Assembly (NCBI GenBank): GCA_031292515.1
Contig: JARLGZ010000278.1
Span: 17,891-81,890 of the forward strand
Direction: 5' to 3'
DNA: 64,000 nt
Origin: Puia sp.
Lineage (GTDB): Bacteria; Bacteroidota; Bacteroidia; Chitinophagales; Chitinophagaceae
The notes beneath the pieces are model-generated. The model searched no databases, was not told the DNA's origin, and saw only the letters and a list, made by a program, of their open reading frames with translations. The position numbers and the translations under genes were made by a program. This document shows, one piece after another, positions 6,660 through 44,681 of this stretch; the first letter of the stretch is position 1; the number at the start of each line of letters is the position of its first letter.

Positions 6660-6762
6660 CGGGACAATTTCGGGCATTTTGCCCGGATCCGGCTTGTCAA
6701 AAAGCTCATTTGCAGAACGGTTCCAAAACCCGGTCTTCCCATCGTCTGGCCTGTTCTATAGT

Positions 6763-7716: not shown

Positions 7717-7918
7717 AGATTTTTCTTTTAAGTATTATTTATCTCCCAAATTAGCAATATTCTCCAAAAAAAAGTCTGAATTCAATGCTTATTTGCTGAT
7801 GCCATATCAAACCGGCCGTTATACAGGGTCTCCCGAAAGATCATTCGGTAGAAGCGACTGAGGATAAGACTAATTTGTATAAATTCGTGTCCGCCGCTAA
7901 ATTGCTTAACTACTTCCC

Positions 7919-8500: not shown

Positions 8501-8532
8501 ATCTATAATCATTATTGTTGTAACGGCAATCT

Positions 8533-9753
8533 CTAAACAGCCGCTTTTGCCAGCTCTTCTTTTATTCTTCTTGCCGTGATGTTTATCTGATCGGGCCTCA
8601 TCATCCAGGTCGTGAGGGTCATAAAATCCCTGCCTCCGCCATATGCTTCGATTGAGGGTTCTCCTTTGCGCAGGGCATCCAGCATTTGTTCCCCCGAAAT
8701 CTTGATTTTATCGGTATCCCAACTGATTTTCAGGGTCGGGACATGATCGGCTATAGGGGGAACAAAGGTTTCTGCTCTAACCCCGTTGATCTTTTTTGCC
8801 GCCTCGCCAACCCTGTCGATGCCGGCTTGCCATTCTTTCCACAGTTTGTCCTGGTCAAAGTTTATAAAATGTTCCAATGCCACATACATGGCCAGTATTT
8901 CCTCCTTATTTACTTTCATTCCCCTGCCAATCGTGCCGCTGTGGGGGCTGGCATTCAAACGCGCCGCGGCGACGATTTCCTTTTTTCCCATCAGGATGCC
9001 CGCGCTTTGCGGGCCGCGAATGGCTTTACCTCCTGACAGCGCGACATAACTGAACCCGATATCGTTAAACTTCCAGATATTAGATACGGGTGGCACATTG
9101 GCGGCCATATCGATAGATGCGGGTAAGCGGTGTTTGTTCGCCAGGGCTACCCATTCTTCTTCTTTTATCTTTCCGCTCAGGGAACCGCTCCCCAGGAAAT
9201 GCATGGAAGCCGTTTTCTCATTCACCGCTTTGTCTACGTCGTCGGGCGTCTCAACGTAGACCAGTTTGACCCCGCAGTTGATGAAGGCATGGTTGTAATC
9301 TATCTGGTGGCTTTTCTGGATGATGACTTCCGATTTTATCTCCGTACCTGCCAATTGAGGGATTTGTTTCACTTTCTCGGGATCCATCCCGGTTAGTATG
9401 CCCGCCATGCCGAGCATCAGGGCGGAGAAAGCGCCGGAGGTCACCATGGCCGATTCCGCGTGCGTCAGGGCTGCAATTTTCTCGCCCACCTTGTCCTGCA
9501 ACTCGTCCAGCATGCAGAAGTCTCTGGAACTGTCTTTTATCGTTTCTACGACGTAGTCGTGCATAAGCGAGCCGGACATTGCCGTGATGGTGCCGCGGGC
9601 GTTGATGAATGTGCGCACGCCTAGCTCCTTAAACAAATCCCGTTTGGCGGAGAGCGGAGATGCAGGAGAGGATTCAAAAAACAGTGTCTCTCCTTTTACG
9701 CTTATCGGCAGGCTAAGCAGGCTTAGCCCTTTTATAATATCCCTGCGGTTCAT
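8533..9753 (-). CDS. SelA-like PLP-dependent enzyme with Tat/Sec-type leader
   Basis: The SGGKAIRGPQSAGIL block resembles the PLP-lysine region of L-seryl-tRNA(Sec) selenium transferase-like proteins. The leader is MNRRDIIKGLSLLSLP. The start overlaps the upstream gene's stop (ATGA). Confidence 0.6.
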   Translation of the reverse strand: MNRRDIIKGLSLLSLPISVKGETLFFESSPASPLSAKRDLFKELGVRTFINARGTITAMSGSLMHDYVVETIKDSSRDFCMLDELQDKVGEKIAALTHAESAMVTSGAFSALMLGMAGILTGMDPEKVKQIPQLAGTEIKSEVIIQKSHQIDYNHAFINCGVKLVYVETPDDVDKAVNEKTASMHFLGSGSLSGKIKEEEWVALANKHRLPASIDMAANVPPVSNIWKFNDIGFSYVALSGGKAIRGPQSAGILMGKKEIVAAARLNASPHSGTIGRGMKVNKEEILAMYVALEHFINFDQDKLWKEWQAGIDRVGEAAKKINGVRAETFVPPIADHVPTLKISWDTDKIKISGEQMLDALRKGEPSIEAYGGGRDFMTLTTWMMRPDQINITARRIKEELAKAAV

Positions 9754-11534
9754 TTCGTTTTTTGTTTTGTTTTTTGCGTAGTTGCCGGGTTGTTGTTTTC
9801 GATGGTTTTTCTTACGGCCGCAACGTTCTCAACGGTGACCGGGTCGGCATGGTTGTTAAAATGCTGCCTGATATACGTCAATATCTGCGCAACTTTTGCA
9901 TCGGACAGCATATACATCTTCGGCATGGTATTGTTGTAGGACTTGTTTTTCACCGTGAAGTTCCCCTGCAAACCGTTTAAGACAATACTTATTAACAGGT
10001 TCTTGTCTCCGTTGACCCATTCCGATTCGCTTAGCGGAGGGAACCGTTCGTTACCCAGACCATTTCTCTGGTGGCAGATGGCGCAATAGGTTTTATAGTA
10101 TACGGCTTCGGGCGGCGTAATCTCTTTGTCCAGGTTGTCTTTGACTTCGTCCGGCGTTCTCAGATTCGGGGCCGTTCTTTGGCGTTTTTCCATACCCGCC
10201 AATTGCGCGGTGCTGAAATTTGTTTTATTTCCTGTGTACATGATCCGCCAGATTTTGCCTTTTTCAGAGTCGCATACATACAAGGAGCCGTCGGGACCCA
10301 CGGCCAATCCCATCGGCCGGTATTTCGCGTCACTGGTGTTTACGACGGTGTCGATGCCCGCAAACCCGTCTGCAAAGACCTCCCAGGGGCCGGAAGGCCG
10401 TCCGTCTTTGAAGGGGACAAAGCAAATGCAGTATCCGGCCTGTGGGTAAGGTGCGCTGCTTGTCGAGCCGTGAAAGGCAATAAAAGCGCCATGCTTATAA
10501 CGTTCCGGAAATTGTTCTCCTTCATAAAACAACAGGTCGTTGGGGGCGAAGTGGCCTGGAAAGCCAACCACAGGCTGCAGATAATTTTTCCCGTCTCCTT
10601 CTTTTTTTCCATCGCCGCCATATTCGGGGCTCAGCATCAGCTTACCCTTCATTTGATCGTAATAATAGTAGGGCCAGCCTGCATTCGAGCCGTCTTCCAG
10701 TCTCAGGAACTCTTCGGAAGGGAGTAAGGCGCTCTCCCATTCAGAATAATAGTCAGGCCAGTTGGGATGCAGATAGTCCCTCCCGTGCATGACCGTATAA
10801 AGATGATGATCGTCGTTATTCCAGTCCAATGCGACGATGCTGCGGAGACCGGTTGCAAACTTATGGCCGTCCGTCTGAAACTGGTCTGTTTTGTTGGCAT
10901 CAAAGCGCCAGATGCCTCCTCTCTTTTCCAACAAGGGACAGGAGTCCTGCCCGGGAGACATGGGGGTCCTGTCGCTAACCTGGCAGCAATCGGATGGCGC
11001 ACCGAAAGGAACATACATATTTCCCTGGTCGTCAAAGGCGATAGGTTTTGTATCATGTTGCCTGGGTGGTTGCGTATCGGTCAGCATCAATTCAATCTTG
11101 CTGTCGGGTACTAATTGACCGGGGGTTAGTCTCTGGCGAAAAACCCGTGTAACGGAGCTGAAATACAGGTATCCATTGTGTATCCTCATGCTGGTACCAT
11201 AGCTCGATTTGTCAATATATTCGTCGAAGTATTCGATCCGGTCTGCCCTGCCATCGTTGTCTTCGTCCCTTAGCGCGGCGTTTTGGCCGCCGGGGCCGGG
11301 GAATCTCAGCTTTGCATAGATATCCCCGTTGCTATTGACGGCAAGATGCCGGATGGCCCCCTTGAGGCTGTCAACGACGACAACGACGGCGAAACTATCG
11401 GGGACGAAAAGTCCGCCGTTGCGGGGATCGAATACCGGTGCGCTGTATCTGTGTTTGCACTGGCTAAGACAGCAGAGGACCAGCAATGAAATGACAAAAA
11501 TAGAAGAAATAAAACCCCGTCTTTTGGATCTCAT
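9750..11534 (-). CDS. Beta-propeller sugar dehydrogenase-like protein (PQQ/sorbosone dehydrogenase type) with C-terminal c-type cytochrome domain
   Basis: N-terminal signal anchor. Propeller-like blades are present (e.g. PMGLAVGPDGSLYVCDSEKGKIWRI). The C-terminal CAICH heme-binding motif with downstream NNTMP is typical of class I cytochrome c. Confidence 0.65.
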   Translation of the reverse strand: MRSKRRGFISSIFVISLLVLCCLSQCKHRYSAPVFDPRNGGLFVPDSFAVVVVVDSLKGAIRHLAVNSNGDIYAKLRFPGPGGQNAALRDEDNDGRADRIEYFDEYIDKSSYGTSMRIHNGYLYFSSVTRVFRQRLTPGQLVPDSKIELMLTDTQPPRQHDTKPIAFDDQGNMYVPFGAPSDCCQVSDRTPMSPGQDSCPLLEKRGGIWRFDANKTDQFQTDGHKFATGLRSIVALDWNNDDHHLYTVMHGRDYLHPNWPDYYSEWESALLPSEEFLRLEDGSNAGWPYYYYDQMKGKLMLSPEYGGDGKKEGDGKNYLQPVVGFPGHFAPNDLLFYEGEQFPERYKHGAFIAFHGSTSSAPYPQAGYCICFVPFKDGRPSGPWEVFADGFAGIDTVVNTSDAKYRPMGLAVGPDGSLYVCDSEKGKIWRIMYTGNKTNFSTAQLAGMEKRQRTAPNLRTPDEVKDNLDKEITPPEAVYYKTYCAICHQRNGLGNERFPPLSESEWVNGDKNLLISIVLNGLQGNFTVKNKSYNNTMPKMYMLSDAKVAQILTYIRQHFNNHADPVTVENVAAVRKTIENNNPATTQKTKQKTK

Positions 11535-30815: not shown

Positions 30816-33194
30816 ATGAGAAATTTTTTTTTGGGAGCTGTTTTTAGCAGGGATGTTTTTATAAGAAATATTTCTACAAGAAAGGCTCGTTTCAGAACTG
30901 CCCCTTGCGTGTTTTGTGTTTCCCTGATGCTCGTATCCTCGCTACCGGCATTTTCCCAGTTGGTGATCAAAGGCAGGGTGATCGATAAAAATACCCGTTT
31001 GCCCATCGAATATGCCGTTGTCAGCATCCCCGTAAAGGGGGCGGCCACTGCTCACAGGACGATCGATGCCATCACCGATCAACAGGGGAATTTCGAACTC
31101 CGGCTAAAGGATGCGGGAACGGGAGAGACGGGTGACTCTCTACGGGTCTCCTTTGTAGGATACCGTTCGACTGCGCTGGCCTGGATGGGATCCCGGGGAA
31201 GACAGGATCATTCCCGGCCGCTGCTTATCGAGATGGAAAGGGGGCCCGTGGACATGAAAGCCGTGACCATCGTACCCTTGTCCAATAATGCCTCTTTTCA
31301 TACGATCAGCGGAATAGATCTCAATCTGCGGCCGGTAAATTCGGCGCAGGACCTGATGCGGCTGGTGCCCGGTCTCTTCCTGATGCAGCACCAGGGCGGG
31401 GGAATTGCCGAGCATATCTTTCTGAGGGGCTTCGATGCGGATCACGGAACCGATGTCAGTGTCTCGGTGGACGACATGCCGTTGAATCTCGTTTCTCATG
31501 TGCATGGACAGGGGTTCTCCGATCTCCACTTTGTGATCCCGGAGCTGGTCAACAACTATGAATATGGGAAGGGTCCTTATTATACCGATCATGGGGATTT
31601 CACCACCGCCGGCTATGTGGCATTTCACACGGCGGATGTCCTGGATAGAAGCGAGGTAAAGGTCGAAGGCGGAGCCTTCAATACGGGACGTGTAATGGCG
31701 ATGGTGAACCTGCTGGGCAGCAAGGCCCGGCATCGGGATGAGAGCGCCTATATCGCCGGCGAAGCGGCCTACACAGACGGGCCTTATGATTACGCCCAGC
31801 ATTTCAACCGCGTCAACCTCTTTGGAAAATACAATGTCGCCCTTTCGCCAAAAGATAAACTGAAAATCACCCTCTCTACTTTTAGCAGCGATTGGCGTTC
31901 CTCCGGGGAAATTCCCGAACGTGCGGTATCCGAAGGACTGATCAGCCGCTGGGGATATATCGACAGCGCCCAGGGAGGATATACCAGCAGGACCACCGCG
32001 ATTGCGAGACTGACCTCTTCGTTGTCGGATCATCTGGCCCTGGAGAACCAGGTCTATTACGCCCGCTATTTCTTCAACCTGCATTATGACGAGACTTTCT
32101 TTGCCGACGATCCCGTCAACGGAGACCAGTTGCGCCAGCGCGAATCGAGGAATCTCTATGGCTATAACGGCAAGCTTACACATCATGCCTATTTTCAGGG
32201 AGACGGCGATCTGACTTCGACTTTTGGTCTGGGATGGCAGTACAACCATATCGACGGCAGTTCCCTCAGCCATACAAAGGACTATAATGACGTGTTGCAA
32301 TACATCCAATATGGAAACGTCCGGGAGACCGCGTTTAATGGTTATCTTGACGAAAGCTACCGGAAAGGCCGGTGGTTGTTCAATGCAGGGGTGAGACTGG
32401 ACTATCTCAATTTTGACTATCTGGACAAGCTAAATCCGCAACAACCTTCCCGGAGCAAGACCATAGCGAGCCCTAAACTGAACGTGGCCTATACAGCCGA
32501 CGAGAACGTGCAACTGTATATCAAAACGGGGAAAGGTTTCCATTCCAACGATGCCAAAGTAGTGGCCGCCAACCGGGGTCTGGACGTCCTGCCGGCAGCC
32601 TATGGCGCCGACCTGGGCATCAACTGGAAACCGGTGCCGCACCTGTTCATCAATACGGCGCTGTGGTATCTGTACCTGCAACAGGAATTCGTATACAACG
32701 GCGACGACGGTACTTTCAGCCCGGGCGACAAGACCCGGCGGGAGGGGATAGATGTCTCCGCGCGATACCAGTTCACCAACTGGCTATTCGCCAATTTCGA
32801 TATCAATATCTGCAGGGCGAGGGATATCCAGGCTGCTAAGGGAGAAAATTATCTGCCGCTCTCGGTACCGCTTTCCAGCACGGGAGGGCTCTATTTCAGG
32901 CTGCCTATGGGGTTGAATGGCGGGATCAGCTATAAATACCTGAAAGACCGGCCGGCAAATGAAGACAACTCGCTCGTTGCAAAGGGCAATTTCCTAACCG
33001 ACCTATCGGCCAACTACACAAAGAAGAAGTATGAGATCGGTCTGGAGATACAGAACCTGTTTAACACGAAATGGGAAGATGCCCAGTATGAAGTGGTGTC
33101 CCGGTTGAAAAACGAACCGCAGCCTGTGGACGATATCAGCTTTACGCCGGGTATGCCTTTTTTTGCAAAGCTGAAGCTGGCCTTATTCTTCTGA
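30816..33194 (+). CDS. TonB-dependent receptor with N-terminal carboxypeptidase-regulatory-like domain
   Basis: VIKGRVIDKNTRLPIEYAVVSI (CarboxypepD_reg), then plug-like LMRLVPGLFLMQHQGGG...IFLRGFD. The long beta-barrel region ends in the terminal aromatic LALFF. Confidence 0.9.
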   Translation: MRNFFLGAVFSRDVFIRNISTRKARFRTAPCVFCVSLMLVSSLPAFSQLVIKGRVIDKNTRLPIEYAVVSIPVKGAATAHRTIDAITDQQGNFELRLKDAGTGETGDSLRVSFVGYRSTALAWMGSRGRQDHSRPLLIEMERGPVDMKAVTIVPLSNNASFHTISGIDLNLRPVNSAQDLMRLVPGLFLMQHQGGGIAEHIFLRGFDADHGTDVSVSVDDMPLNLVSHVHGQGFSDLHFVIPELVNNYEYGKGPYYTDHGDFTTAGYVAFHTADVLDRSEVKVEGGAFNTGRVMAMVNLLGSKARHRDESAYIAGEAAYTDGPYDYAQHFNRVNLFGKYNVALSPKDKLKITLSTFSSDWRSSGEIPERAVSEGLISRWGYIDSAQGGYTSRTTAIARLTSSLSDHLALENQVYYARYFFNLHYDETFFADDPVNGDQLRQRESRNLYGYNGKLTHHAYFQGDGDLTSTFGLGWQYNHIDGSSLSHTKDYNDVLQYIQYGNVRETAFNGYLDESYRKGRWLFNAGVRLDYLNFDYLDKLNPQQPSRSKTIASPKLNVAYTADENVQLYIKTGKGFHSNDAKVVAANRGLDVLPAAYGADLGINWKPVPHLFINTALWYLYLQQEFVYNGDDGTFSPGDKTRREGIDVSARYQFTNWLFANFDINICRARDIQAAKGENYLPLSVPLSSTGGLYFRLPMGLNGGISYKYLKDRPANEDNSLVAKGNFLTDLSANYTKKKYEIGLEIQNLFNTKWEDAQYEVVSRLKNEPQPVDDISFTPGMPFFAKLKLALFF

Positions 33195-33233: not shown

Positions 33234-33608
33234 ATGACACCGCCAATTTATTCCCGCATCGCGTTTCTGTTAGCAGGCTTCTTCCTGTTTACATTCCTAT
33301 CCTGTCAGAACGGTCCCGCCGCAACGCCGGCGGCGGCCAAAGACAGCATGCCCGGAGCTATCCCGCCAGCACCGGGCGCCCATGCGGGTGCCGTCTCCGG
33401 GGCGGGAGCCGCTAAGGAGACCAGACAGGATCTGAGGCAGCTGCACCTGAGTTTTGCGATCCCCAAGGATCCATCCTGCGGGATGCCGCTCACGGCTGGC
33501 CTGGAAGACACGCTTCGTTACAAAGGGAAGCTCTACGGGTTTTGCTCAAAAGAGTGCAAGGAGGCTTTTCTAAAAGACCCGGCAGCTGCTCTGGCGGGTG
33601 CAAAATAG
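33234..33608 (+). CDS. YHS/TRASH-like domain lipoprotein
   Basis: The lipobox is FLSC. C-terminal DPSCGMPL...YKGKLYGFCSKECKEAFLKDP resembles the YHS metal-binding domain. Confidence 0.65.
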   Translation: MTPPIYSRIAFLLAGFFLFTFLSCQNGPAATPAAAKDSMPGAIPPAPGAHAGAVSGAGAAKETRQDLRQLHLSFAIPKDPSCGMPLTAGLEDTLRYKGKLYGFCSKECKEAFLKDPAAALAGAK

Positions 33609-33622
33609 GAGGCGCGCTTTCC

Positions 33623-33652
33623 GGTGGACGGGACGTCCGCCTTTTGTTTTTT
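33623..33652 (+). terminator. Intrinsic terminator closing the TonB-receptor operon
   Basis: GGTGGACG-GGA-CGTCCGCC stem (one G-U pair) followed by TTTTGTTTTTTG, 15 nt after the stop at 33608. Confidence 0.7.
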
Positions 33653-34002: not shown

Positions 34003-36981
34003 ATGTATAGGACCGTACACCGAAAAATCAGTTGGCTTTTTCTGTTTTCGGTATTTTGTCTCTGCCTGGTCGGCAGGCTGATCTTGCTGAACAAACAGGA
34101 TGCGGAGAAGACGGGTTTCCGGATCAATCACACCTGGGAGATTATCGGCGCCCTCGACCAGATAAACGACCTCGTTTCCGAATCCCAGGTGGCCGCCTTT
34201 GGATATATCATCAGCGCCGACGGTGCCTGGAAATCACAGCTTCTCCAGACACGCAAAAATCTGCAACAGGAATTGGGAAGATTGCAGCAAATCACCGGAG
34301 ACAATGCCATTCAACAGAAGAATTGGGAATCGCTGATAAGCCTTCTCGAACAAAAACAACTCATCGAAGACAGCCTATCGGATTCGAAGAATCCTGTATT
34401 CGAAAATGACCGCCGGTTTTCATTTGGTCTGCGGATACAACACACTACGAGAGCTATAAAATCCGCCCTCTATGCGATGAAAGACGAGGAGGCCAATCTT
34501 CTTGCCGAGAGCCAAAGCTTGGGCAGGCTGGTACATACAAAGGCCATGTGGGCCCTGGTGACGGGAAGCCTGCTCACCTTTATGTTTGTCATCGTCATCC
34601 TCGTTCAGCTCAACAAGGACATCACCTTGCGTAAAAAAGCGGAGCAGGGACTTCACCAGAATGAATTGAAATACCGGAACCTGGTTGAAAATGCCGCCGC
34701 GGTCATTTATTCGACGGATAGCCAGGGGCATATCAATTTCTCGAGTGAAAAAGCCACCGAACTGACGGGGTATACCGTTGAAGAGTTGAAGGGCAGACAT
34801 TTCGCCTCGCTCGTCGATCCTTCTTTCCTGGACAGGGTAGTGGCCAACTATGCCAATCAGTTCAAGACGGGGACCGTCGAAACTTCCATGGTTTTTTTGA
34901 TCGTCACAAAAAACGGCGAAAAGAAATGGGTGGAGCAGTCCGCCGTCCTGTTGATGGAAAAAGACATCAGGCTGGGCTTCCAATGTTTCGTCAAGGATAT
35001 CTCAGAAAAGAAGCAAATGCAACTGGAACTCGAAGCCTCCGAATTCAAGCTGAAGGAGAACCAGCTCTGGCTGCAATCGATCCTCGACAACACGACCTCC
35101 CTGATCTTTATCAAAGACCTTTCGGGCAGGTATATTCTGATCAATAAGCGGTTCAAGGAAATTCTTGGTGTGGAAGAGGACCAGGTGATCCACAAAACGG
35201 ACTATGACCTGACCAGCCGGGAACTGGCCGATCATTACAAGATGCTCGATGAAGAGGTGATCCGGACGGGCAGATCCGTGGAAAGAGAAGAGCTGGTCCG
35301 GACGACGGGCGGCGACCGGAACCTGCTCCTGATAAAATTCCCCCTGCTGGACGGAAACAATAAGGTGTTTGGCGTCAGCGGTATCGCCACCGACATCACC
35401 GAGCGAGCGCATTATCAGCAGGAACTGATCAAAGCGACAAAAGAGGCCGAAGAGGCACGGCAGATGCAGGAACAGTTCCTGGCCAATATGAGCCACGAGA
35501 TCAGGACGCCCATGAACGGGATACAGGGAATGACCAATCTCCTGCTCGATACCTCTTTGAGCGAACAACAGGCCGAATTCGCCCATATCATCCGGCGATC
35601 CACCGGCAACCTGCTCGTCATTATCAATGATATACTGGACTTTTCAAAGATCAAGGCCGGCAAGCTGACCATCGAAAAGATAGATTTCAACCTCCAGGAC
35701 GTGCTCAGCAATGCGCAGGCCGTTTTTTCGCATCGCCTGTTAAAAAACAACCTGGATTTCCGGATCGAGCTGGATCCTTCCATACCGGATCTGCTGAGAG
35801 GCGACCCTCACCGGCTAAACCAGGTCCTCATAAACCTGATCGGCAATGCTATCAAATTTACGGAGCACGGATCCATACGGGTAGCCGTCAGCCGGCTCAC
35901 GCAAACCGACACCGGGGTGGTCCTCCGGTTTTCTGTATCGGATACCGGTATCGGCATCAGCGAGGAGGACCTGCCGCATATTTTTGAAAGCTTTTCGCAG
36001 GCGGGTCTCGATATCTCCCGGCGGTATGGCGGAACCGGTCTCGGCCTGGCCATCTGCAACCAGCTGCTGAAATTGCAGAAAGGTGACATCAGCGTTACCA
36101 GCGTCACGGGGCAGGGATCGTCTTTTAATTTCCGTATCCCTTACGAATACAGCAACCGGCAATCGGGTCAACCTGTCCTGGCAAAGGTTTATGACTATGC
36201 CGGCCTATTGGCCGGCAAGCGTTTCCTGGTAGCGGAGGATAATGAAGTCAATCAAAAGCTGATCGAATATGTGTTAAGAAAGGTGGGCGGCATTGTCCGG
36301 CTTGCGGGCAACGGCGAACAAGCTATCCGGGAATTGCAGCAGGATGCCGGTTATGATATCATCATCATGGACCTCCAGATGCCCGTTATGGATGGATATG
36401 CGGCTACCCGGCACATTCGGACGGTGCTGCGCCTGGAAACACCGATCATCGCCATGACGGCTACGGCGCTCAAAGGGGAACAACTGCGCTGCTTCGAAGC
36501 CGGGATGAACGAATACATGACCAAACCGTTTGAATTTACGGAGCTCTATAAATGCATCGGCAGCCTGCTGGGAAAAAAAGAGACTGCCTTATCTCCCGTC
36601 CCGGCGGCGATCCAGGAGAAAACGGCAGAGAAGCCATATGATCTCGCCTTACTCGAAGAAATGGACGATAAGGAATACCTGCTGGACATGCTGAACCTGT
36701 TCCTGACCAATATGCCCGTCCAATTGGAGGAACTGGTGCAGGCGTCTGGGCGGCAGGATTTTGACAAAGTATTCAGCGTTGCCCATAAATTAAAAGGGAC
36801 TGCCGGCATGCTTCGTACGCAGGCATTGATGGATCAGCTCGTCAGGATCGAAACCGGGTCCCGTGAGAGGATGGATACATCCGGGATGGTCCGGAGGGCT
36901 GCGGATCTTTTCACTCAGCTCGAAGGATTGCTGCAGGAAGAAAAATCAAGGGTCGAGGGCATGCTTGGAAAAGTCGTTTAA
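34003..36981 (+). CDS. Hybrid sensor histidine kinase: TM-CHASE3-TM, 2x PAS, HisKA, HATPase_c, REC, Hpt
   Basis: The CHASE3-like periplasmic segment (INHTWEIIGALDQINDLVSESQVAAFGYII...) is bracketed by two TM helices. H-box FLANMSHEIRTPMNGI; G-boxes DTGIGI and GGTGLGLAIC; receiver RFLVAEDNEVNQ...IIIMDLQMPVMDG...IIAMTA; Hpt AHKLKGTAGML. Confidence 0.95.
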   Translation: MYRTVHRKISWLFLFSVFCLCLVGRLILLNKQDAEKTGFRINHTWEIIGALDQINDLVSESQVAAFGYIISADGAWKSQLLQTRKNLQQELGRLQQITGDNAIQQKNWESLISLLEQKQLIEDSLSDSKNPVFENDRRFSFGLRIQHTTRAIKSALYAMKDEEANLLAESQSLGRLVHTKAMWALVTGSLLTFMFVIVILVQLNKDITLRKKAEQGLHQNELKYRNLVENAAAVIYSTDSQGHINFSSEKATELTGYTVEELKGRHFASLVDPSFLDRVVANYANQFKTGTVETSMVFLIVTKNGEKKWVEQSAVLLMEKDIRLGFQCFVKDISEKKQMQLELEASEFKLKENQLWLQSILDNTTSLIFIKDLSGRYILINKRFKEILGVEEDQVIHKTDYDLTSRELADHYKMLDEEVIRTGRSVEREELVRTTGGDRNLLLIKFPLLDGNNKVFGVSGIATDITERAHYQQELIKATKEAEEARQMQEQFLANMSHEIRTPMNGIQGMTNLLLDTSLSEQQAEFAHIIRRSTGNLLVIINDILDFSKIKAGKLTIEKIDFNLQDVLSNAQAVFSHRLLKNNLDFRIELDPSIPDLLRGDPHRLNQVLINLIGNAIKFTEHGSIRVAVSRLTQTDTGVVLRFSVSDTGIGISEEDLPHIFESFSQAGLDISRRYGGTGLGLAICNQLLKLQKGDISVTSVTGQGSSFNFRIPYEYSNRQSGQPVLAKVYDYAGLLAGKRFLVAEDNEVNQKLIEYVLRKVGGIVRLAGNGEQAIRELQQDAGYDIIIMDLQMPVMDGYAATRHIRTVLRLETPIIAMTATALKGEQLRCFEAGMNEYMTKPFEFTELYKCIGSLLGKKETALSPVPAAIQEKTAEKPYDLALLEEMDDKEYLLDMLNLFLTNMPVQLEELVQASGRQDFDKVFSVAHKLKGTAGMLRTQALMDQLVRIETGSRERMDTSGMVRRAADLFTQLEGLLQEEKSRVEGMLGKVV

Positions 36982-37016: not shown

Positions 37017-37385
37017 ATGAAGATCCTGGTGGCAGAAGATGAAACGATCATGTTGAAGACAATTGACTTCCGTTTGAAGAAGGACGGTTATGAGGTCTTT
37101 TTGGCGGAAGACGGACAAAAGGCCCTTGAAAAAATCGAGGAGCTGTCCCCCGATCTGATCATCACCGATATCATGATGCCTTACGCGTCCGGCCTTGAGA
37201 TCGTCGGCTTTGTGAGGAAGAACAAGGAGAAGAGGATCCCCATCATCATCCTGTCCGCCATGGGGCAGGAAGATGTCGTGCTGGAAGCGTTCGGGCTGGG
37301 CGCCGATGACTATATCACCAAGCCTTTCAGCCCCAACGAACTGTCGGTAAGGGTAAAGCGACTGCTATCGGTAACCGGCCGGTGA
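37017..37385 (+). CDS. Stand-alone CheY-like response regulator receiver
   Basis: MKILVAEDE...DLIITDIMMPYASGLE...IIILSA...DDYITKPF; 122 aa with no output domain. Confidence 0.95.
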   Translation: MKILVAEDETIMLKTIDFRLKKDGYEVFLAEDGQKALEKIEELSPDLIITDIMMPYASGLEIVGFVRKNKEKRIPIIILSAMGQEDVVLEAFGLGADDYITKPFSPNELSVRVKRLLSVTGR

Positions 37386-38533
37386 GCACCGGAAAAAATC
37401 ATTTATTATCAATGCCATTTTTAGAAGTCCATCCTATCCAATACCTGAAAACCGGCTACCTGGTCGTTGCCATGTTTGTATTGCTCGGCGTGCTGTTTTC
37501 CGTTGTCCTGTTTATGCTGCTCTATCTGCTCGCCAGGAAGAAACGGGAGAAGCAAAAGGAACGATGGCACCAGCCGGTCGACCTGCTTATCCGGCGGGCT
37601 ATTTTTTTTGAAGAGAGCCCCGACAGGATGCAGATCCCGATAACACCCGGGGTGAGCAGATGGCTGAAAAGGTCTTATTTCCGGCAATTCCTCCTCGACG
37701 AAATGATTACAGCCAAAAAGAGTTTCTCCGGCAATGCCGCCGAAAACCTGGTGAGACTCTATAACCAGCTGCGTCTTGAAAGACTTTCGCTGACGAAGCT
37801 CAGCAGCCTGAAATGGCATATCCGGGCTCGATGCATCCAGGAACTGGCCGCGATGGACCAGAAAGACCAGGTAGGAAAGATTTACCGGCTGACCAATCAT
37901 CCAAACGAATTCATCCGGATGGAGGCGCAATCGGCGATCGTCCATTTCTATGGGTTCGAAGGGCTGCGCTTTCTCGATGTGGTATCCCAGCCCATCTCCG
38001 AATGGCAACAGATCCAGCTGCTGGCGCAACTTCCAAAGACTTTGGGCGCCGGGTTGAAAGGCATGGAAAGCTGGTTAAAATCTTCCAATTCATCTGTCAT
38101 CTCGTTTGCGTTAAAACTCGCCCGGATTCACCGGCGGTTCGAACTGCATGACGCGGTGGCCGGTTGCCTGGATCATCACAATCCCGCGGTGCGCATACAG
38201 GCCCTGAAGTGTTTGCAGGATATTTGTAATGAGACGACGGCCACGCTGATCATCGGCCGCTATGAAAAAAACGACCGTCTTTATCGCATCGCGGCCCTCG
38301 AAACCCTGCAATGTATGGGGCCGGAGAGCGCGGAACAGCAGATCGGTTTCCTGCAAAAAGAATTGCTGAATGAAGACGATACGATCAAGCTGGCAACCGC
38401 CCGCGTTCTGGCGACCGTAAGCGGGCGGGGGACGCAGTCACTGGACGATTTTGAAAAGGCAGGAGAATATCCCTGGAATGAGATCATCCGCCAGGCGAAA
38501 GGTGAACAGACAAAAAGCGGGAAAGCGGCATGA
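37382..38533 (+). CDS. Membrane-anchored HEAT-repeat protein
   Basis: A single TM helix (LVVAMFVLLGVLFSVVLFMLLYLLA) is followed by the RKKREKQKERW stop-transfer. Repeated helical units with HPNEFIRMEAQSAI, HHNPAVRIQALKCL and DDTIKLATARVLA are typical of HEAT/PBS-lyase repeats. The GTG start overlaps the RR stop (GTGA); an alternative ATG is at 37412. Confidence 0.7.
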   Translation: MSTGKNHLLSMPFLEVHPIQYLKTGYLVVAMFVLLGVLFSVVLFMLLYLLARKKREKQKERWHQPVDLLIRRAIFFEESPDRMQIPITPGVSRWLKRSYFRQFLLDEMITAKKSFSGNAAENLVRLYNQLRLERLSLTKLSSLKWHIRARCIQELAAMDQKDQVGKIYRLTNHPNEFIRMEAQSAIVHFYGFEGLRFLDVVSQPISEWQQIQLLAQLPKTLGAGLKGMESWLKSSNSSVISFALKLARIHRRFELHDAVAGCLDHHNPAVRIQALKCLQDICNETTATLIIGRYEKNDRLYRIAALETLQCMGPESAEQQIGFLQKELLNEDDTIKLATARVLATVSGRGTQSLDDFEKAGEYPWNEIIRQAKGEQTKSGKAA

Positions 38534-39957
38534 GCTGGCAGCAAATCATATTTGGCTTTTTCAGCTATGGCATCCTGCTATACTCCCTGGTCTTGCTGGC
38601 ATTCTATCTCTTCATTGCGCTTTTTGCCATCGGGGAGATCCGTCACTATCTTTGGGCAAACCGGTTTACCGACTACCGCGTACTGGCGGTTTCTTCCAAC
38701 GCGCCGGGAATGAGCATTCTGGCGCCGGCCTACAACGAGGCCGCCACCGTGGTAGAAAATGTAAGATCGCTTCTTTCCATTCATTATAACAACCTGGAGG
38801 TCATCATCATCAACGATGGCAGTAAAGACGAGTCGCTGCAGAAGCTGATCGCGGAATATGATCTGCATAAGGTCGACTTTTTCGTTCAGGAGCGGGTCGC
38901 CACAAAAAAAGTGAGAGGGGTGTATAAAAGCGCTAACCCCGTTTTCCACAAGCTCATCGTCGTGGACAAGGAGAATGGCGGGAAAGCCGATGCGCTGAAC
39001 GTGGGGATCAATATCGCAGGCAAACCCTATATCGTATGCATAGATGTGGATTGTATCCTCGAACAGGATGCGCTGCTGAAAATGGCCAAACCCTTCCTGG
39101 AAGAGAAGGGTTATCGGGTCATCGCTTCCGGTGGCGTCGTGCGGATCGCGAATTCCTGCCTGATCAGGAATGGCCGGCTCGAGAAAGTCAATCTCCCTGA
39201 TCGATTTCTGCCGCGTGTGCAGACGCTGGAATATATCCGGGCTTTCCTGCTGGGCCGGATGGCCTGGAGCAGGATGAACGGACTCCTGCTGATCTCGGGG
39301 GCTTTCGGCGCTTTCGAAAAAGAGATCGTCATAGCCTGCGGCGGCTACAACCATAAGACAGTTGGTGAAGACATGGAACTCGTGGTCCGTATGCGCAGGT
39401 ATATGGAGGAGCGGAAAGAACCTTATAAGGTGACGTATATTCCAGACCCGCTCTGCTGGACGGAAGCCCCCGTCTCTTATAAGATCCTCGGAAGGCAAAG
39501 GAACCGCTGGACAAGGGGCACGATCGAAACACTCCGATTTCATAAGATCATGTTCCTCAATCCGCGCTACCGGTTGCTGGGGATGCTGAGTTATCCTTAC
39601 TGGCTGTTCTTTGAGCTGTTGGCTCCGATCGTCGAATTTGCCGGTATCGCCGGTCTGCTTCTGTCGGCTTTATTTGGCTTTCTCAACTGGTCGGTGTTCT
39701 TTGCGTTGCTGGGTTTTATCGTATCCTTTGGGTTCCTGTATTCGATATTTGCCATCCTGATGGAAGTCCTCACCTATAATCAATACAAACAATCGAAGGA
39801 TATCCTGCGATTGGTGCTTACGGCGATACTCGAGCCGGTTCTTTTCCATCCTTTTGTAGTATGGTCCGCCATCCGGGGGAATATAGACCTGTTGAGAAAA
39901 AAGAATAGCTGGGGAGAGATGACCCGCCAGGGGTTTGTCGTCAAAAAGAATCCATAA
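38530..39957 (+). CDS. Processive membrane-embedded family-2 glycosyltransferase (PgaC/IcaA/BcsA/NodC-like polysaccharide synthase)
   Basis: There are N-terminal TM segments. The catalytic motifs are APAYNEA...IIINDGSKD, KADALN, IDVDC (DxD), VGEDMEL (TED-like) and QRNRWTRG (QxxRW). Three to four C-terminal TM helices follow. The ATG overlaps the upstream stop (ATGA). Confidence 0.9.
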   Translation: MSWQQIIFGFFSYGILLYSLVLLAFYLFIALFAIGEIRHYLWANRFTDYRVLAVSSNAPGMSILAPAYNEAATVVENVRSLLSIHYNNLEVIIINDGSKDESLQKLIAEYDLHKVDFFVQERVATKKVRGVYKSANPVFHKLIVVDKENGGKADALNVGINIAGKPYIVCIDVDCILEQDALLKMAKPFLEEKGYRVIASGGVVRIANSCLIRNGRLEKVNLPDRFLPRVQTLEYIRAFLLGRMAWSRMNGLLLISGAFGAFEKEIVIACGGYNHKTVGEDMELVVRMRRYMEERKEPYKVTYIPDPLCWTEAPVSYKILGRQRNRWTRGTIETLRFHKIMFLNPRYRLLGMLSYPYWLFFELLAPIVEFAGIAGLLLSALFGFLNWSVFFALLGFIVSFGFLYSIFAILMEVLTYNQYKQSKDILRLVLTAILEPVLFHPFVVWSAIRGNIDLLRKKNSWGEMTRQGFVVKKNP

Positions 39958-40010: not shown

Positions 40011-42095
40011 ATGAATCGAAAAGAACCAATATCAATAGATAAGAGTAGTATGAATGATTTGAAAATACATATCCGCCTCTTCGCTGCTTTGTCGCTGGCG
40101 TGGCTGGTGATGATCCTCCTGTTGAGCGGCTATGAATTCCTGTCGAATGGGAGCGCTCCGGGTATCTGGGAGCATGCGGGTTCCCTGTTCCTGTACAAGT
40201 TGTTTAACGAGGGGGTATACTGGCTGGACTCCTGCGGATGGCTGCTGGTTTTTTTCATCGCCTGCTATTTTCTGTCGGCCCGGCTTGCCCGCGGGCTGAC
40301 TATGGTGATCATCGTGCTATTGGTATTGATACAATTCATGCTCGCAAAATATTTTTCCACGGCGTTTGTTCCGCTTGGCGCCGATCTGTATGGATATTCC
40401 TGGAAGGATATAAAACAGACGGTGGGCGCTTCCGGCAGCATGAATGCCGGCACGATCGCCATTTTCGCGGTCCTGGCCGGGATACCGTTTTTATGGCTTC
40501 GCCTTGCCTGCCGGCGGATCCGGATCCCCCTGCTGCCTGCCTTGCTATTGCCCTTGCTATCGGTGATCGCGATGACGGCCGGTCCTTCTCTTCTCCGGCA
40601 TCACGGGGTTTTCCCGTCAGATTTTGCATCGAACCTGGTCCTGAGCAAGCCCGGCTATTTTTTCAGACAGTCCCGGGATCATTTTTTCCCCGAGGAGCAG
40701 GAGACCGATATCTATGCGGACTATTATGCCGGGGAGACAGGCGGCGACGAGGGGCTTGCCGCCAATTTCCTATACCCGGACGAAACCGGCTATCCCTTTT
40801 TTCATGGCGACAGTACGAAGGATGTGCTGTCTCCTTTTTTCGCTTTGCGGGGACAGGACGGCCCGGCCCGCCACACGGAAACTGTCACTCCTCCTCATAT
40901 CGTCATTATCCTGGTCGAAGGATTGGGTCGCGCCTTTACCAACGAAGGCGCCTATCTCGGAAATTTTACGCCTTTTCTGGATTCCCTGGCCGGCCACAGT
41001 TTGTACTGGAAGAATTTCCTGAGTGAAGGAGGGAGGACTTTTGCCGTGCTGCCATCCGTGCTGGGATCGCTGCCCTTTGGCAAGAACGGGTTCCTGGAGA
41101 TGGGAGAGGGGATGCCTTCGCAGCTCTCATTGCTAAACGTGCTTAAGAGAGACGGCTATCACAGCTCTTTCTATTATGGCGGCGACGCTCATTTCGACAA
41201 TATGGATCTTTTTTTGCAGAAGGGCGGGATCGATGAATTAAATGACGGCAGATCCTTTCCGGCCGGTTATACAAAACTTCCTGCCGAAAATGGGTTCTCC
41301 TGGGGATATAACGATAAGGAATTGTTTCGCCGCTATCTGGAGACGCGGGCAGCCGTCCCTGCACAGCCGCAACTCAGCGTGATCCTGACGGTTTCGACGC
41401 ATAGTCCTTTCAAGATCAACGAACCCGATAAATACAGCCGGCTTTTTGAGAACCGGATGAACCAATTGGGTTTTGACGAGGCACAGAAGAAGGAGCACCG
41501 GGTCTTCAAGGATCAATATGTGAGTATCTTGTATATGGATGACGCGCTGCGCAGTTTCTTTGCAGCCTATGCCCACCGGGCCGATTTTCAAAACACGGTC
41601 TTTCTTATCACCGGAGATCACCGGATGCCTGAAATTCCCATGAGGACGAAGATCGACCGCTACCATGTGCCCCTGATCTTCTATTCGCCGCTGTTGAAGA
41701 GAACGGCTGACTTCCTTTCGGTATCGACACATTTCGACATAGCGCCCTCTTTGCTGGCCTTCCTGTCTCATGGTTATGGTATCAGGAGACCCTCCGGGGC
41801 GCAATGGATGGGCGCCGGGCTCGACACGGCCAGGGGCTTCCGCAACATCCATGCTTACCCGATGATACAGACCAAGACCGACCAGGTGGATTTCATCATG
41901 GGTGAATATCATTTGAATGGGACGCAGGTATTCCGGCTGTCCCCGGATATGAATGAAGAAGCTGTCACGGATGAAGACGGAAAAGAGATTGCCGGCCGAC
42001 TCGATAACGCATTTGGCAGGTTCCGTCAACGGAACGGGCGTATTACGCCCCGGGGAAAAATGGTTCCCGATTCGCTGTTGAAGGCCTATCCCTGA
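40011..42095 (+). CDS. LtaS/BcsG/OpgB-like membrane transferase (multi-TM N-domain plus extracytoplasmic alkaline-phosphatase/sulfatase-fold domain)
   Basis: About 5 N-terminal TM helices are followed by IVIILVEGLG, TVSTHSPF and LITGDHRMPE blocks characteristic of the sulfatase/LTA-synthase superfamily. Confidence 0.8.
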   Translation: MNRKEPISIDKSSMNDLKIHIRLFAALSLAWLVMILLLSGYEFLSNGSAPGIWEHAGSLFLYKLFNEGVYWLDSCGWLLVFFIACYFLSARLARGLTMVIIVLLVLIQFMLAKYFSTAFVPLGADLYGYSWKDIKQTVGASGSMNAGTIAIFAVLAGIPFLWLRLACRRIRIPLLPALLLPLLSVIAMTAGPSLLRHHGVFPSDFASNLVLSKPGYFFRQSRDHFFPEEQETDIYADYYAGETGGDEGLAANFLYPDETGYPFFHGDSTKDVLSPFFALRGQDGPARHTETVTPPHIVIILVEGLGRAFTNEGAYLGNFTPFLDSLAGHSLYWKNFLSEGGRTFAVLPSVLGSLPFGKNGFLEMGEGMPSQLSLLNVLKRDGYHSSFYYGGDAHFDNMDLFLQKGGIDELNDGRSFPAGYTKLPAENGFSWGYNDKELFRRYLETRAAVPAQPQLSVILTVSTHSPFKINEPDKYSRLFENRMNQLGFDEAQKKEHRVFKDQYVSILYMDDALRSFFAAYAHRADFQNTVFLITGDHRMPEIPMRTKIDRYHVPLIFYSPLLKRTADFLSVSTHFDIAPSLLAFLSHGYGIRRPSGAQWMGAGLDTARGFRNIHAYPMIQTKTDQVDFIMGEYHLNGTQVFRLSPDMNEEAVTDEDGKEIAGRLDNAFGRFRQRNGRITPRGKMVPDSLLKAYP

Positions 42096-42152: not shown

Positions 42153-43409
42153 TCATTTCTTTGGAAGCGTTCGATAATAGTCGTAGAATATCCTGTTCAT
42201 CATCGGCCTGTAGAAATTCCAGAAGAAGCCGACTCGCTGGTTGGGGTCGCTGGTGTCATAAAACAGCCAGCTGAAAAAAGAGATGCCCTTGAAGGGAGAG
42301 CTGCCCAGGCCGATGGGGTTGTCGCAGAAGTCACCGGAAAAATAATAGAAGCGATAATCTTCGCCCTGGTGGAACAATACCGCCGGGAAGCGGAGCGGTA
42401 TCCGGTGCTTTTTCAATTCGGCGGCGCCCGCTGCGTTGGCATGGATGACAAACTCCGCGCCGATCTCATTACGGGCAGAACCGGCAGGAGCCGGGTAGCC
42501 TGCGGAATCCGGTTTGTCTTGTCCGGCCGGTGAAAGCGGGGCCCTCGAAACCGAATCATTCAGGACAGGATTGGGATCGGTGATATCGAACCAGAAGGGA
42601 TACTTTGTCTCTCTCGGAAGGTCGAGGGCTTCCCGCCCGGTTTCCGTGCTCTCAATGACGGGTACCGCGTCGAGCAAGCCGGTGGACGTTTCCAGGACTA
42701 CGATCTGGTCGTCGTTGCTGACGAACGCAATGCCGTCGTGGTGAAAGGGCCACGCGCCCTCATGTTGCAGCCGGTAGTTGCCGACGAGCCAATGCGGCAA
42801 TTCACTGTTGACGGATGTGTCGAGTGAGGAGAAATAACGCGCCGTCCAACCCGTCCAATGCATGCCGAACAGACGTTCGAACCGGGTTCGGACCGCCGTA
42901 GCCGTAGGCGAGCCGATCGTATTGAATTCCGCGATCATCAGCTTGTGCCGGGCTTTCATGTTTTCCAGCAGACCGATATCTTCGGGGCTCATTCCCCCAT
43001 AGACAAGACCGGAGCGCCCGGAGACGGCTGTTTTTTTATACCATTCGTTCTTGTAGATGCCGTAGGTATCCGTGAAATAGACCCCGTCGGCATCGCCAGC
43101 GAGGGTCTTTAGCCGTTCGGAAGAGAATCGTTCGAGGCCCTTTAGTTTGAAATGGTCATCCTGACCGGGGAAAAACCCAAAATAATCGTGGTCAGGCTCG
43201 TACAGATCCTTTTTTGTTTTTGTGAATTTCTCGTGCCGTAATATCCAGTCGAGCGAGATATGTTCCTGTGCAAGGGGCGTGAGGACGGTCTTATCTACGA
43301 TGGCGACCACCATTTTTTTCCGGGGTGTACACACCCAGGCCAGCCACATCCATAACGGCAGGAGGAGCAGTATCACGAGCAGGAAAAGAAACCCCCTGGT
43401 CTTTGTCAT
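42153..43409 (-). CDS. Membrane-anchored protein of unknown function (no family recognised)
   Basis: 418 aa with an N-terminal TM helix FLFLLVILLLLPLWMWLAWV. Its ATG directly abuts the stop of the upstream porin gene (TAAATG). No recognisable catalytic motif. Confidence 0.6.
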   Translation of the reverse strand: MTKTRGFLFLLVILLLLPLWMWLAWVCTPRKKMVVAIVDKTVLTPLAQEHISLDWILRHEKFTKTKKDLYEPDHDYFGFFPGQDDHFKLKGLERFSSERLKTLAGDADGVYFTDTYGIYKNEWYKKTAVSGRSGLVYGGMSPEDIGLLENMKARHKLMIAEFNTIGSPTATAVRTRFERLFGMHWTGWTARYFSSLDTSVNSELPHWLVGNYRLQHEGAWPFHHDGIAFVSNDDQIVVLETSTGLLDAVPVIESTETGREALDLPRETKYPFWFDITDPNPVLNDSVSRAPLSPAGQDKPDSAGYPAPAGSARNEIGAEFVIHANAAGAAELKKHRIPLRFPAVLFHQGEDYRFYYFSGDFCDNPIGLGSSPFKGISFFSWLFYDTSDPNQRVGFFWNFYRPMMNRIFYDYYRTLPKK

Positions 43410-44681
43410 TTAGAATCGCTTTTGATAGCCTATGCCGATATCCACCTGATTTCCCCGCGTTCCCGGCAGGTATTCCTGGTTGATCAGGGTAGCCGTGGCA
43501 AAGACGACATTCAGTTTTTTGATGGCGTGGTTGTAACCTACGGACAGCTTATTCGATTTTAACTCATAATGGGAATTCAGCTGGATATTGTTGCTCAGAT
43601 CGTCGGGTGAAATGCCGGTGCCCAGCGCCAGGCTCAGGTAGTCGTCGGCCCCTCCATAATAGTAGCGGGTGGTGACCGTATAGGACTGGGAAATATTGCT
43701 GTTGCCGGGGGTGAGATAAGTACGGGCATTAAACCAGAAGTTCCTGTAATATTTACCCGCCGACAGGGTATAGATCCAGGTGTCGCTGCTGAAATACAGG
43801 TAGCGGAAGCCGGCTTCGGCCTCGAAGCTTTTTGGCAGGTTGGCATAGAGAGAAAATCCCGCCCGGTATTTGGGGAAAATGCCGACGTCGTGCGAATAGC
43901 CGGCGTTTATATAGCTGTAGAAGGTCCTCGATATCTTCGGGTAGGCATCGCCCTCTACTTGTACTCCGTTGCTGTTAAACCGGTTGGCATAATTGATGCG
44001 GCCGATGACGGCGCCGATTTTTGTCTGTCGTTTATAGTCCACGCTGGCGAGATGCCAGGGGGCGTTGAACTCCTTATCAAAATAGACATAGTCGTAATAG
44101 ACCCCCAATTGATTTTTTGCGGCTTTGAAACGGGTTTGCAGAGCCAAAGCCCGCGCCTCCGCATTTTTTGGATCGGTCCTCAGCAAGGTATCGGTTATCG
44201 CCGCGGACTCTTTGAAGCGGCCCAGATCGTTCAGGATCTTTGCTTTTTTCAGCAGGAGATCCCGGGAAGCGGGATGATAGAACAATCCTTTGTCGCACCA
44301 GGACAGGGCCTGGTCTGAGTGGTCGTTCCAGTATTCGAGATCGGTCATGGCGGCGGCGGCATCTTCGTTGTCCGGATGCCTGTCAAGTACATAACCGAGG
44401 GCCTGCCGGGCGCTATCTAAGTGGTGATTCCAGGCATAAATCCTGCCCAGAAAGACCCTGATGTCCGAATAATCGGGGCTTTTTTCAAGGGCCTTCTTAC
44501 ACCGTTCGATTGCCGCGGGATAGTCGTGGTCGCTAAATGCCGAATGCCTGGCCTGTTGAAATAAGTCATCCGCGGAAAGGGAGACCTGTGCCCGGGTCTG
44601 TAAGGGAAGTGCATTTAGTATCGTAAAAGAGAGGATGACCGTAAGAGGCCCAAAAAGGAGATTTCCAATAGGGTTTTTCAT
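43410..44681 (-). CDS. TPR-repeat plus YaiO-like outer-membrane beta-barrel protein (PgaA/BcsC-like architecture)
   Basis: Signal peptide, then ~180 aa of TPR-like helices (AIERCKKALEKSPDYSDIRVFLGRIYAWNHHLDSA...). These are followed by ~230 aa with alternating-hydrophobic beta-strand periodicity, ending IGIGYQKRF with a terminal Phe. Confidence 0.65.
   Translation of the reverse strand: MKNPIGNLLFGPLTVILSFTILNALPLQTRAQVSLSADDLFQQARHSAFSDHDYPAAIERCKKALEKSPDYSDIRVFLGRIYAWNHHLDSARQALGYVLDRHPDNEDAAAAMTDLEYWNDHSDQALSWCDKGLFYHPASRDLLLKKAKILNDLGRFKESAAITDTLLRTDPKNAEARALALQTRFKAAKNQLGVYYDYVYFDKEFNAPWHLASVDYKRQTKIGAVIGRINYANRFNSNGVQVEGDAYPKISRTFYSYINAGYSHDVGIFPKYRAGFSLYANLPKSFEAEAGFRYLYFSSDTWIYTLSAGKYYRNFWFNARTYLTPGNSNISQSYTVTTRYYYGGADDYLSLALGTGISPDDLSNNIQLNSHYELKSNKLSVGYNHAIKKLNVVFATATLINQEYLPGTRGNQVDIGIGYQKRF

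Follow-up and report, generated by a model that had tools for sequence, protein, structure and literature searches.

The genome of a Puia species (Bacteroidota; Chitinophagaceae) contains a gene cluster in which a HEAT-repeat protein with a single transmembrane (TM) helix is encoded between a stand-alone response regulator receiver (RR) and a processive membrane glycosyltransferase of the GT2 family. The analysis reported here covers a stretch of 64,000 nucleotides of this genome (assembly GCA_031292515.1, contig JARLGZ010000278.1, positions 17,891 to 81,890), referred to as the window throughout, together with related loci from other species. Its main result, well supported by sequence comparison, is that the HEAT protein appears to be an obligate partner of the GT2 synthase. 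The cluster represents an uncharacterized synthase-dependent system of the Bacteroidota, equipped with a distinctive partner protein and a probable phosphorylation switch. With considerable reserve, we further propose that the phosphorylated receiver (RR~P) binds the HEAT solenoid of the obligate HEAT-GT2 complex and in this way gates the synthase, in a system that has not been described before.

HEAT-family relatives are encoded in 187 of 185,579 species genomes. The related loci considered in the following are the best 80, drawn from contigs of one genome per species, and the proteins of the window were mapped onto each of them. All 80 are clusters from Chitinophagaceae or Sphingobacteriaceae. 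They share a conserved module that consists of the receiver, the TM-HEAT protein, the processive GT2, a membrane transferase resembling LtaS/OpgB (LtaS-like in the following), a conserved protein of 418 residues, here called U418, and an outer-membrane beta-barrel of the YaiO type combined with tetratricopeptide repeats (TPR-YaiO), while the kinase/Hpt input is variable. Of the 80 loci, 51 encode the YaiO barrel, and many others end at a contig edge. Judged from the sequences retrieved, the HEAT family is confined to this polysaccharide-cluster context. Identity to the relatives amounts to 36-65% for the HEAT protein and to 60-75% for the receiver; the GT2, with 72-91% among its top 120 matches, is far more conserved than its HEAT partner.

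The strongest evidence for a specific relationship between the HEAT protein and the synthase comes from the junction of their genes. In the window, the TGA stop codon of the HEAT open reading frame (38531-38533) and the ATG start codon of the GT2 gene (38530-38532) form an ATGA overlap at 38530-38533 on the forward strand. An earlier interpretation made from the letters of the window alone (the sequence-only reading) had pointed to this overlap as a sign of translational coupling, and it proved to be real and conserved: a 4-nucleotide overlap (NTGA) is present in 72 of the 76 loci that contain both genes, and a 1-nucleotide overlap in three more. The sole separation among the 76 loci occurs in L054 (5505-11339), where a second hybrid-kinase gene (6631-9846) lies between the two. 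In three metagenome contigs (L082-L084), the same ATGA overlap was set by an independent gene caller. The other junctions in the same loci, i.e., those leading from GT2 to the LtaS-like gene, from YaiO to U418 and from RR to HEAT, vary widely, between about -46 and over +100 nucleotides. The HEAT/GT2 overlap is far beyond chance, and it is conserved even though identity among the HEAT proteins of these relatives is no higher than 36-65%. A HEAT gene locked to the GT2 gene in this manner fits a stoichiometric partner. Ordinary operon packing would account for the arrangement without any specific link between HEAT protein and synthase: no class of gene overlap is more frequent in bacterial operons than the 4-nucleotide ATGA type, and the GTGA string at the RR/HEAT junction, to which we return below, is explicable by chance. 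What packing does not explain is that this one overlap persists in such divergent relatives while the neighboring junctions drift, nor that the HEAT family occurs only in this context; we therefore regard it as very improbable and, in view of the synteny, as close to refuted.

The architecture of the HEAT protein agrees with a role at the membrane. The 373-residue form (37412-38533, forward strand), counted from the likeliest ATG as supported by the gene-called version P0001 and by alignments, contains one hydrophobic segment, a helix of 28 residues near the N-terminus (residues 14-41, 37451-37534, assigned by hydropathy and charge). The basic stretch RKKREKQKERW (37535-37567), which the sequence-only reading had described as a stop-transfer element behind a single TM helix, follows it directly. 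On average, 6.1 lysine or arginine residues are found on the C-terminal flank of the helix as opposed to 0.6 on the N-terminal flank, and the bias holds for 66 of 66 family members. The basic stop-transfer element and the charge bias place the solenoid in the cytoplasm, and thus confirm the N-out/C-in topology predicted from the sequence. AlphaFold2 (AF2), run with an alignment of 66 sequences, yielded a model of high quality (predicted local distance difference test score, pLDDT, 94.5; predicted template modeling score, pTM, 0.86), in which a long helix comprising residues 9-64 is followed by an all-alpha solenoid. The Pfam family HEAT_2 (PF13646) is matched with 46 bits compared to a gathering threshold of 27.7, and a Foldseek search against the Protein Data Bank (PDB) returned only generic protein-binding scaffolds, namely alphaRep, designed armadillo, importin-alpha, the A subunit of PP2A and Integrator subunit 4. 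The notion of a membrane-tethered, cytoplasmic HEAT solenoid is thereby borne out. A functional homologue was found neither by Foldseek nor by sequence searches of the PDB, both of which led to repeat scaffolds only.

By sequence, residues ~233-345 are the sole part of the protein matched in the PDB, where they resemble designed HEAT-like (alphaRep) repeats (profile 1e-53), and no PDB relative was detected by sequence for the center of the solenoid (residues 135-236, 37814-38119). This center is the most conserved part of the solenoid according to the alignment, with the invariant residues W135, R169-x-E171-A-Q173 (RMEAQ), G181/G184-L-x-F-L (GFEGLRFL), W198-Q-Q200 (SEWQQIKLL), W221, and N226, and from this pattern we infer that it may serve as a partner-binding surface. 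A profile search of 1.8 billion representative proteins delineated a compact family of ~340-390 residues plus a variant of 545-631 residues. The long variants (P0270, P0334, P0346 and the protein encoded at 9158-10828 in L055) carry an N-terminal extension of 200-280 residues ahead of the TM helix. Three of seven long variants contain a weak LysM match at residues ~36-79 (18-21 bits, cut-off 20.9). The location of this LysM-like segment ahead of the TM helix fits an extracytoplasmic N-terminus, and its presence would fit contact of the long-variant N-terminus with an N-acetylglucosamine-containing glycan, be it peptidoglycan or the product of the synthase.

The protein encoded directly downstream (38530-39957, forward strand, 475 residues) was identified as a processive membrane GT2 synthase on the basis of Pfam and NCBIfam matches and invariant motif columns. 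Invariant in 25 orthologues are D96, D172-x-D174, E280-D281, and Q323-R-N-R-W327. Pfam assigns the protein to GT2 families and to Chitin_synth_2. Its best named relatives in NCBIfam are PgaC/IcaA (TIGR03937, 131 bits with a cut-off of 422.3) and the XrtG-associated glycosyltransferase (TIGR03111, 134 bits with a cut-off of 364), and in comparison with the PDB only the N-terminal Rossmann segment matches generic GT2 enzymes. UDP-N-acetylglucosamine would be the foremost candidate for the donor sugar, in view of the resemblance to PgaC and chitin synthases and of the long HEAT variants with LysM. Pfam revealed no regulatory domain in the GT2, PilZ included. Taking gene order, conserved overlap, exclusive co-occurrence, and compatible topology together, we consider a complex of HEAT protein and GT2 to be likely, with good confidence.

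The third element of interest is the stand-alone receiver (37017-37385, forward strand). It has 122 residues, consists of a REC domain only (Pfam Response_reg, 101 bits), and has its nearest named NCBIfam relatives among OmpR/PhoB-type receivers, not CheY. Conserved across 52 sequences are the acidic pair E7/D8, D51, S80, Y98, and K102, which make up the complete set of phospho-acceptor and switch residues, together with the signature AFxLGADDYITKPF, and the alpha4-beta5-alpha5 region is highly conserved as well. The receiver is encoded in 77 of the 80 loci, which means in essentially all of those with sufficient flanking sequence. A hybrid histidine kinase (HK) gene adjoins the RR gene in Chitinophagaceae loci. 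In the window, this gene occupies positions 34003-36981 on the forward strand, its product has the Pfam architecture CHASE3-PAS-PAS-HisKA-HATPase-REC-Hpt with the Hpt domain at residues ~895-973, and it likely provides the phosphorelay input to the receiver, as far as this can be deduced from domain content and position. In loci of Pedobacter and Mucilaginibacter, which retain the receiver (L015, L004-L008, L082-L084), no kinase is encoded within 10 kb. A different layout, a stand-alone Hpt gene followed by two tandem receiver genes, was observed in the Chitinophagaceae loci L048, L062, L064, L071, L072, and L075. As the receiver is constant and the kinase is not, we assign the receiver to the synthase module and regard its sensory input as exchangeable. 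The view of the output-less receiver as a part of the module, already taken in the sequence-only reading, is thus upheld even for clusters without a nearby kinase.

Several observations make it plausible that such a receiver acts on the machinery itself. It lacks an output domain, and Pfam revealed no gene for a DNA-binding regulator or transcription factor in the cluster. Nor did Pfam detect a PilZ, GGDEF or MshEN-type domain in HK, RR, HEAT protein, GT2, LtaS-like protein, U418 or YaiO, although a cryptic binding site may be present. Bacteroidetes possess few or no GGDEF proteins (PMC7288161). There is also a precedent, as the single-domain RR EpsW of Myxococcus xanthus directly activates the polysaccharide enzyme EpsZ (PMC12802240). 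These findings suggest that phosphorylation rather than cyclic di-GMP (c-di-GMP) switches the synthase on, and with moderate confidence we favor post-translational control by the receiver.

The model that we derive from these elements is, as a whole, offered tentatively and somewhat short of even confidence. The GT2 would polymerize and translocate the glycan. The HEAT protein, anchored by its one TM helix and made together with the GT2 via the stop/start overlap, would hold its solenoid beside the catalytic domain. The receiver would obtain its phosphoryl group via an Hpt domain from the kinase available in the respective lineage, and RR~P would then dock on the HEAT-GT2 complex, most probably at the conserved center of the solenoid, and activate the synthase. 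In this lineage, docking of RR~P would take the place that c-di-GMP receptors have in other systems. Modification and export of the polymer would then fall to the LtaS-like enzyme, U418, and the TPR-YaiO barrel. The step in which the HEAT protein serves as the docking site of the receiver is one that we regard as possible and hold with caution.

A number of points weigh against this model, and they concern above all the proposed link between receiver and HEAT protein. The sequence-only reading had held that the RR and HEAT genes overlap in the same way as the HEAT and GT2 genes, and that receiver and HEAT protein are therefore produced in stoichiometric amounts. A GTGA string does exist at 37382-37385 on the forward strand, composed of the RR stop codon TGA (37383-37385) and a candidate GTG start codon (37382-37384) from which the HEAT protein would have 383 residues. 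It is probably unused. The gene-called version in the database (P0001, 373 residues) starts at an in-frame ATG at 37412, 30 nucleotides 3' of the GTG, the closest homologues (P0002, P0004, L001) align from this ATG (MIPFLQIH compared to MPFLEVH in the window), and the ten residues that the GTG start would add (MSTGKNHLLS) have no counterpart in them. Because of this evidence from gene calling and homologous N-termini, the GTG start is unlikely and the HEAT gene probably starts at ATG 37412. By our rough estimate, an NTG over the TGA stop together with ten open codons is to be expected in ~45% of such junctions. In L001, the closest genome (65% identity), the RR gene ends with TAA 57 nucleotides ahead of the HEAT start. 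The RR gene is located directly 5' of the HEAT gene in 65-66 of the 80 loci, yet a true ATGA overlap between the two occurs in only 13 of 65, all within the Pedobacter clade; outside this clade, the spacer is mostly 0-60 nucleotides long. Given the unconserved junction and the unsupported GTG start, coupling of RR and HEAT does not characterize the system, and it probably does not exist in the window either. The string itself stood up to inspection, the overlap did not.

In 12 of the 80 loci, the receiver gene even travels with the hybrid kinase gene and is located past the YaiO gene on the opposite strand, which further detracts from the claimed stoichiometric coupling. As it is transcribed there with kinase and export genes and not with HEAT and GT2, the same observation speaks for an altogether different explanation, in which the receiver never touches the synthase and is instead a phosphate sink or shuttle or acts on some unlinked protein, for instance a transcription factor; the HEAT protein would in that case have another task for the synthase, such as its localization or the recruitment of precursor enzymes or of a peptidoglycan-anchored platform. 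Stand-alone receivers often are sinks or connectors, and the LysM-like periplasmic segment of the long HEAT variants hints at anchoring or localization. On the other hand, retention of the receiver in clusters without a nearby kinase or Hpt would be odd for a mere sink, and the cluster has no linked regulator gene. We consider this explanation improbable.

Gene fusions and coevolution do not strengthen the case for docking of the receiver on the HEAT protein either. No REC-HEAT or HEAT-GT2 fusion was found among the top 120 HEAT matches, the top 150 representatives from the profile search, the long variants, and the top 120 GT2 matches; the only fusions seen were GT2-LtaS-like and LysM-like-HEAT. 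A mirror-tree analysis with partial Mantel statistics on the distance matrices of RR, HEAT, GT2, LtaS-like protein, U418, and YaiO gave a significant partial correlation for RR-HEAT (r = 0.38-0.43), compared to 0.08-0.15 for RR-GT2, 0.49 for RR-LtaS-like and 0.45-0.57 for GT2-YaiO. Since equally high or higher values were obtained for pairs that cannot plausibly touch, the method is non-specific here and uninformative, and we discarded it as evidence for contact. All three contacts among RR, HEAT protein, and GT2 are thus argued from indirect grounds, and the GT2 itself is just as conceivable a binding partner of the receiver, in the way EpsW binds EpsZ.

In this latter case, the HEAT protein would be solely a structural or assembly co-subunit comparable to PgaD/IcaD or PelE, and RR~P would bind the catalytic domain of the GT2 without an adaptor and might, like EpsW with EpsZ, favor the formation of an active dimer. 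It is in line with such a scenario that the tight and conserved coupling is that of HEAT and GT2 and not that of RR and HEAT, and that GT2 and receiver are highly conserved, with the HEAT protein lagging behind at only 36-65% identity. Direct contact of a receiver with an enzyme has its precedent in EpsW-EpsZ (PMC12802240). Conversely, the mirror-tree correlation was weakest for precisely this pair, a value that counts for little given the lack of specificity, and a cytoplasmic solenoid of ~300 residues with an invariant polar patch appears large for a purely structural TM partner. In sum, we regard direct binding of the receiver to the GT2 as rather unlikely.

In the window, five genes follow each other in series on the forward strand, namely those for HK, RR, HEAT protein, GT2, and the LtaS-like protein, and the genes for the YaiO barrel and U418 converge on them from the reverse strand. 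A scan of the window for promoters and terminators located a strong terminator-like hairpin at 33623-33641, 5' of the HK gene, and no terminator between the five genes in series. Matches to sigma-70 promoters were set aside because they are not meaningful for Bacteroidota. Further 5', the window contains a gene for a TonB-dependent receptor at 30816-33194 and, at 33234-33608, a small open reading frame for a lipoprotein-like product with a YHS domain, both of which appear to be unrelated to the polysaccharide module. A TonB-dependent receptor is also encoded 5' of the cluster in L001, the closest relative.

The LtaS/OpgB-like membrane transferase (40011-42095, forward strand, 694 residues) belongs to the sulfatase superfamily (Pfam Sulfatase, 107 bits; weak NCBIfam matches to LtaS/OpgB) and is, to judge from these matches, likely to modify the polymer on the periplasmic side. 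A fusion of this transferase with the GT2 into a single protein of ~1200 residues occurs in 24 related loci. In one such fusion (L060, 11065-14664), the GT2 part comprises residues 62-333 and the sulfatase part residues 802-1091. The fusions argue for decoration of the polymer during its emergence, comparable to the action of BcsG on cellulose, and they suggest a modification of the phospho-alcohol type, phosphoglycerol or phosphoethanolamine, during synthesis. U418 (42153-43409, reverse strand) has 1075 homologues and no match in Pfam or NCBIfam. It contains ~85 invariant positions, many of which are aspartate, glutamate or histidine, and its gene always adjoins that for YaiO. The AF2 model (pLDDT 84) gave only a weak match to a ThuA/GATase1-like fold in Foldseek. 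U418 looks like an enzyme, as far as conservation and predicted fold can tell. The adjacent gene (43410-44681, reverse strand) encodes the TPR-YaiO protein (Pfam YaiO, 259 bits, and TPR_19; NCBIfam OMP_YaiO_dom, 213 bits), presumed from its domains to act as export porin and scaffold. A polysaccharide-deacetylase domain of the PgaB/IcaB type was not detected by Pfam in the cluster, which also contains no phosphoglycosyl transferase, Wzx, Wzy or ABC exporter. Of the features of synthase-dependent exopolysaccharide systems, the cluster thus exhibits the processive GT2 motifs and the TPR/outer-membrane barrel, the latter from a family other than those of PgaA, BcsC, and AlgE, and no c-di-GMP receptor domain was detected in it by Pfam.

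By analogy, the module may operate along the lines of the machines for Pga, Bcs, Pel, and alginate, in which a synthase is combined with a partner in the inner membrane, a modifying enzyme in the periplasm, and an exporter of the TPR-barrel type. The module shares with PgaABCD/IcaADBC a processive GT2 with D, DxD, GED, and QxxRW motifs, an adjacent small membrane partner (PgaD, IcaD) and a TPR-barrel exporter (PgaA), and of the two named families that the GT2 matches best, PgaC/IcaA is one. However, that match reaches 131 bits as opposed to a cut-off of 422, a PgaB-type deacetylase is missing and the barrel is of the YaiO type. Furthermore, the partner is a 373-residue protein with one TM helix and a HEAT solenoid instead of a two-TM peptide, and control by a receiver is proposed instead of c-di-GMP binding at the PgaC-PgaD interface. 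The Bcs cellulose system likewise combines a synthase with a periplasmic decorator of the alkaline phosphatase superfamily (BcsG there, the LtaS-like enzyme here) and a TPR-barrel exporter, and BcsA and BcsG are reportedly functionally coupled, which is echoed by the GT2-transferase fusions. In contrast to the Bcs system, the cluster contains no PilZ, BcsB or BcsE, NCBIfam places its transferase nearer to LtaS/OpgB than to BcsG, and only the first ~50 residues of the glycosyltransferase domain match BcsA by sequence. In the Pel system, the membrane-anchored helical-repeat protein PelE and the separate receptor PelD accompany the glycosyltransferase, so that an all-alpha membrane-anchored repeat protein and a receptor are found beside a glycosyltransferase in both cases. 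PelF, however, is a soluble GT4 enzyme, PelD binds c-di-GMP via a degenerate GGDEF domain, and no sequence relation of the HEAT family to Pel proteins was detected by Pfam or by PDB sequence searches.

The EpsW-EpsZ pair resembles the proposed arrangement in that a single-domain RR, which receives its phosphoryl group from a dedicated signaling system, contacts a membrane enzyme and thereby activates polysaccharide synthesis post-translationally (PMC12802240). It differs in that the target is a phosphoglycosyl transferase of a Wzx/Wzy pathway, no adaptor is involved, and the input comes from a chemosensory CheA-type kinase (PMC12802240). The statement in the sequence-only reading that no polysaccharide synthase is known to be controlled in this way needs to be qualified accordingly: EpsZ is a polysaccharide enzyme activated by an RR (PMC12802240), and the statement holds insofar as a Wzx/Wzy pathway enzyme is not a synthase. 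The yaiO-yaiX-yaiP-yaiS locus of Escherichia coli also combines a gene for an outer-membrane barrel of the YaiO family with one for a membrane GT2 (yaiP) and with genes for polysaccharide modification, but identity of YaiP to the GT2 of the window is as low as 26% within the catalytic core, a HEAT, receiver or LtaS-like gene is absent, and E. coli YaiO, which is without a TPR part, has no BLASTP similarity to YaiO from the window. The K-12 locus (L081, 380069-384616), in which yaiX is disrupted by IS2, is uncharacterized. We set it aside as a functional guide because it is too distant to be informative.

No published description of the cluster was found in the literature on YaiO, HEAT-repeat, synthase-dependent, Bacteroidetes, and Pedobacter/Mucilaginibacter systems, and a study of Mucilaginibacter by random barcode transposon sequencing does not mention it in the main text. 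To our knowledge, all well-studied synthase-dependent exopolysaccharide systems of Gram-negative bacteria (cellulose, poly-N-acetylglucosamine, alginate, Pel, NfrB) are switched on by c-di-GMP. The Bacteroidota largely lack c-di-GMP signaling, yet they contribute heavily to matrix production in soil and the rhizosphere. The module described here, conserved in at least 187 species, defines new accessory parts in the form of the HEAT partner, the GT2-LtaS-like fusion, U418, and the TPR-YaiO exporter, and it provides a concrete, testable candidate for post-translational matrix control in Bacteroidota. If the model proves true, the HEAT adaptor would correspond, in Bacteroidota, to the c-di-GMP receptors known from other systems (PilZ, the PgaD interface, PelD, and Alg44).

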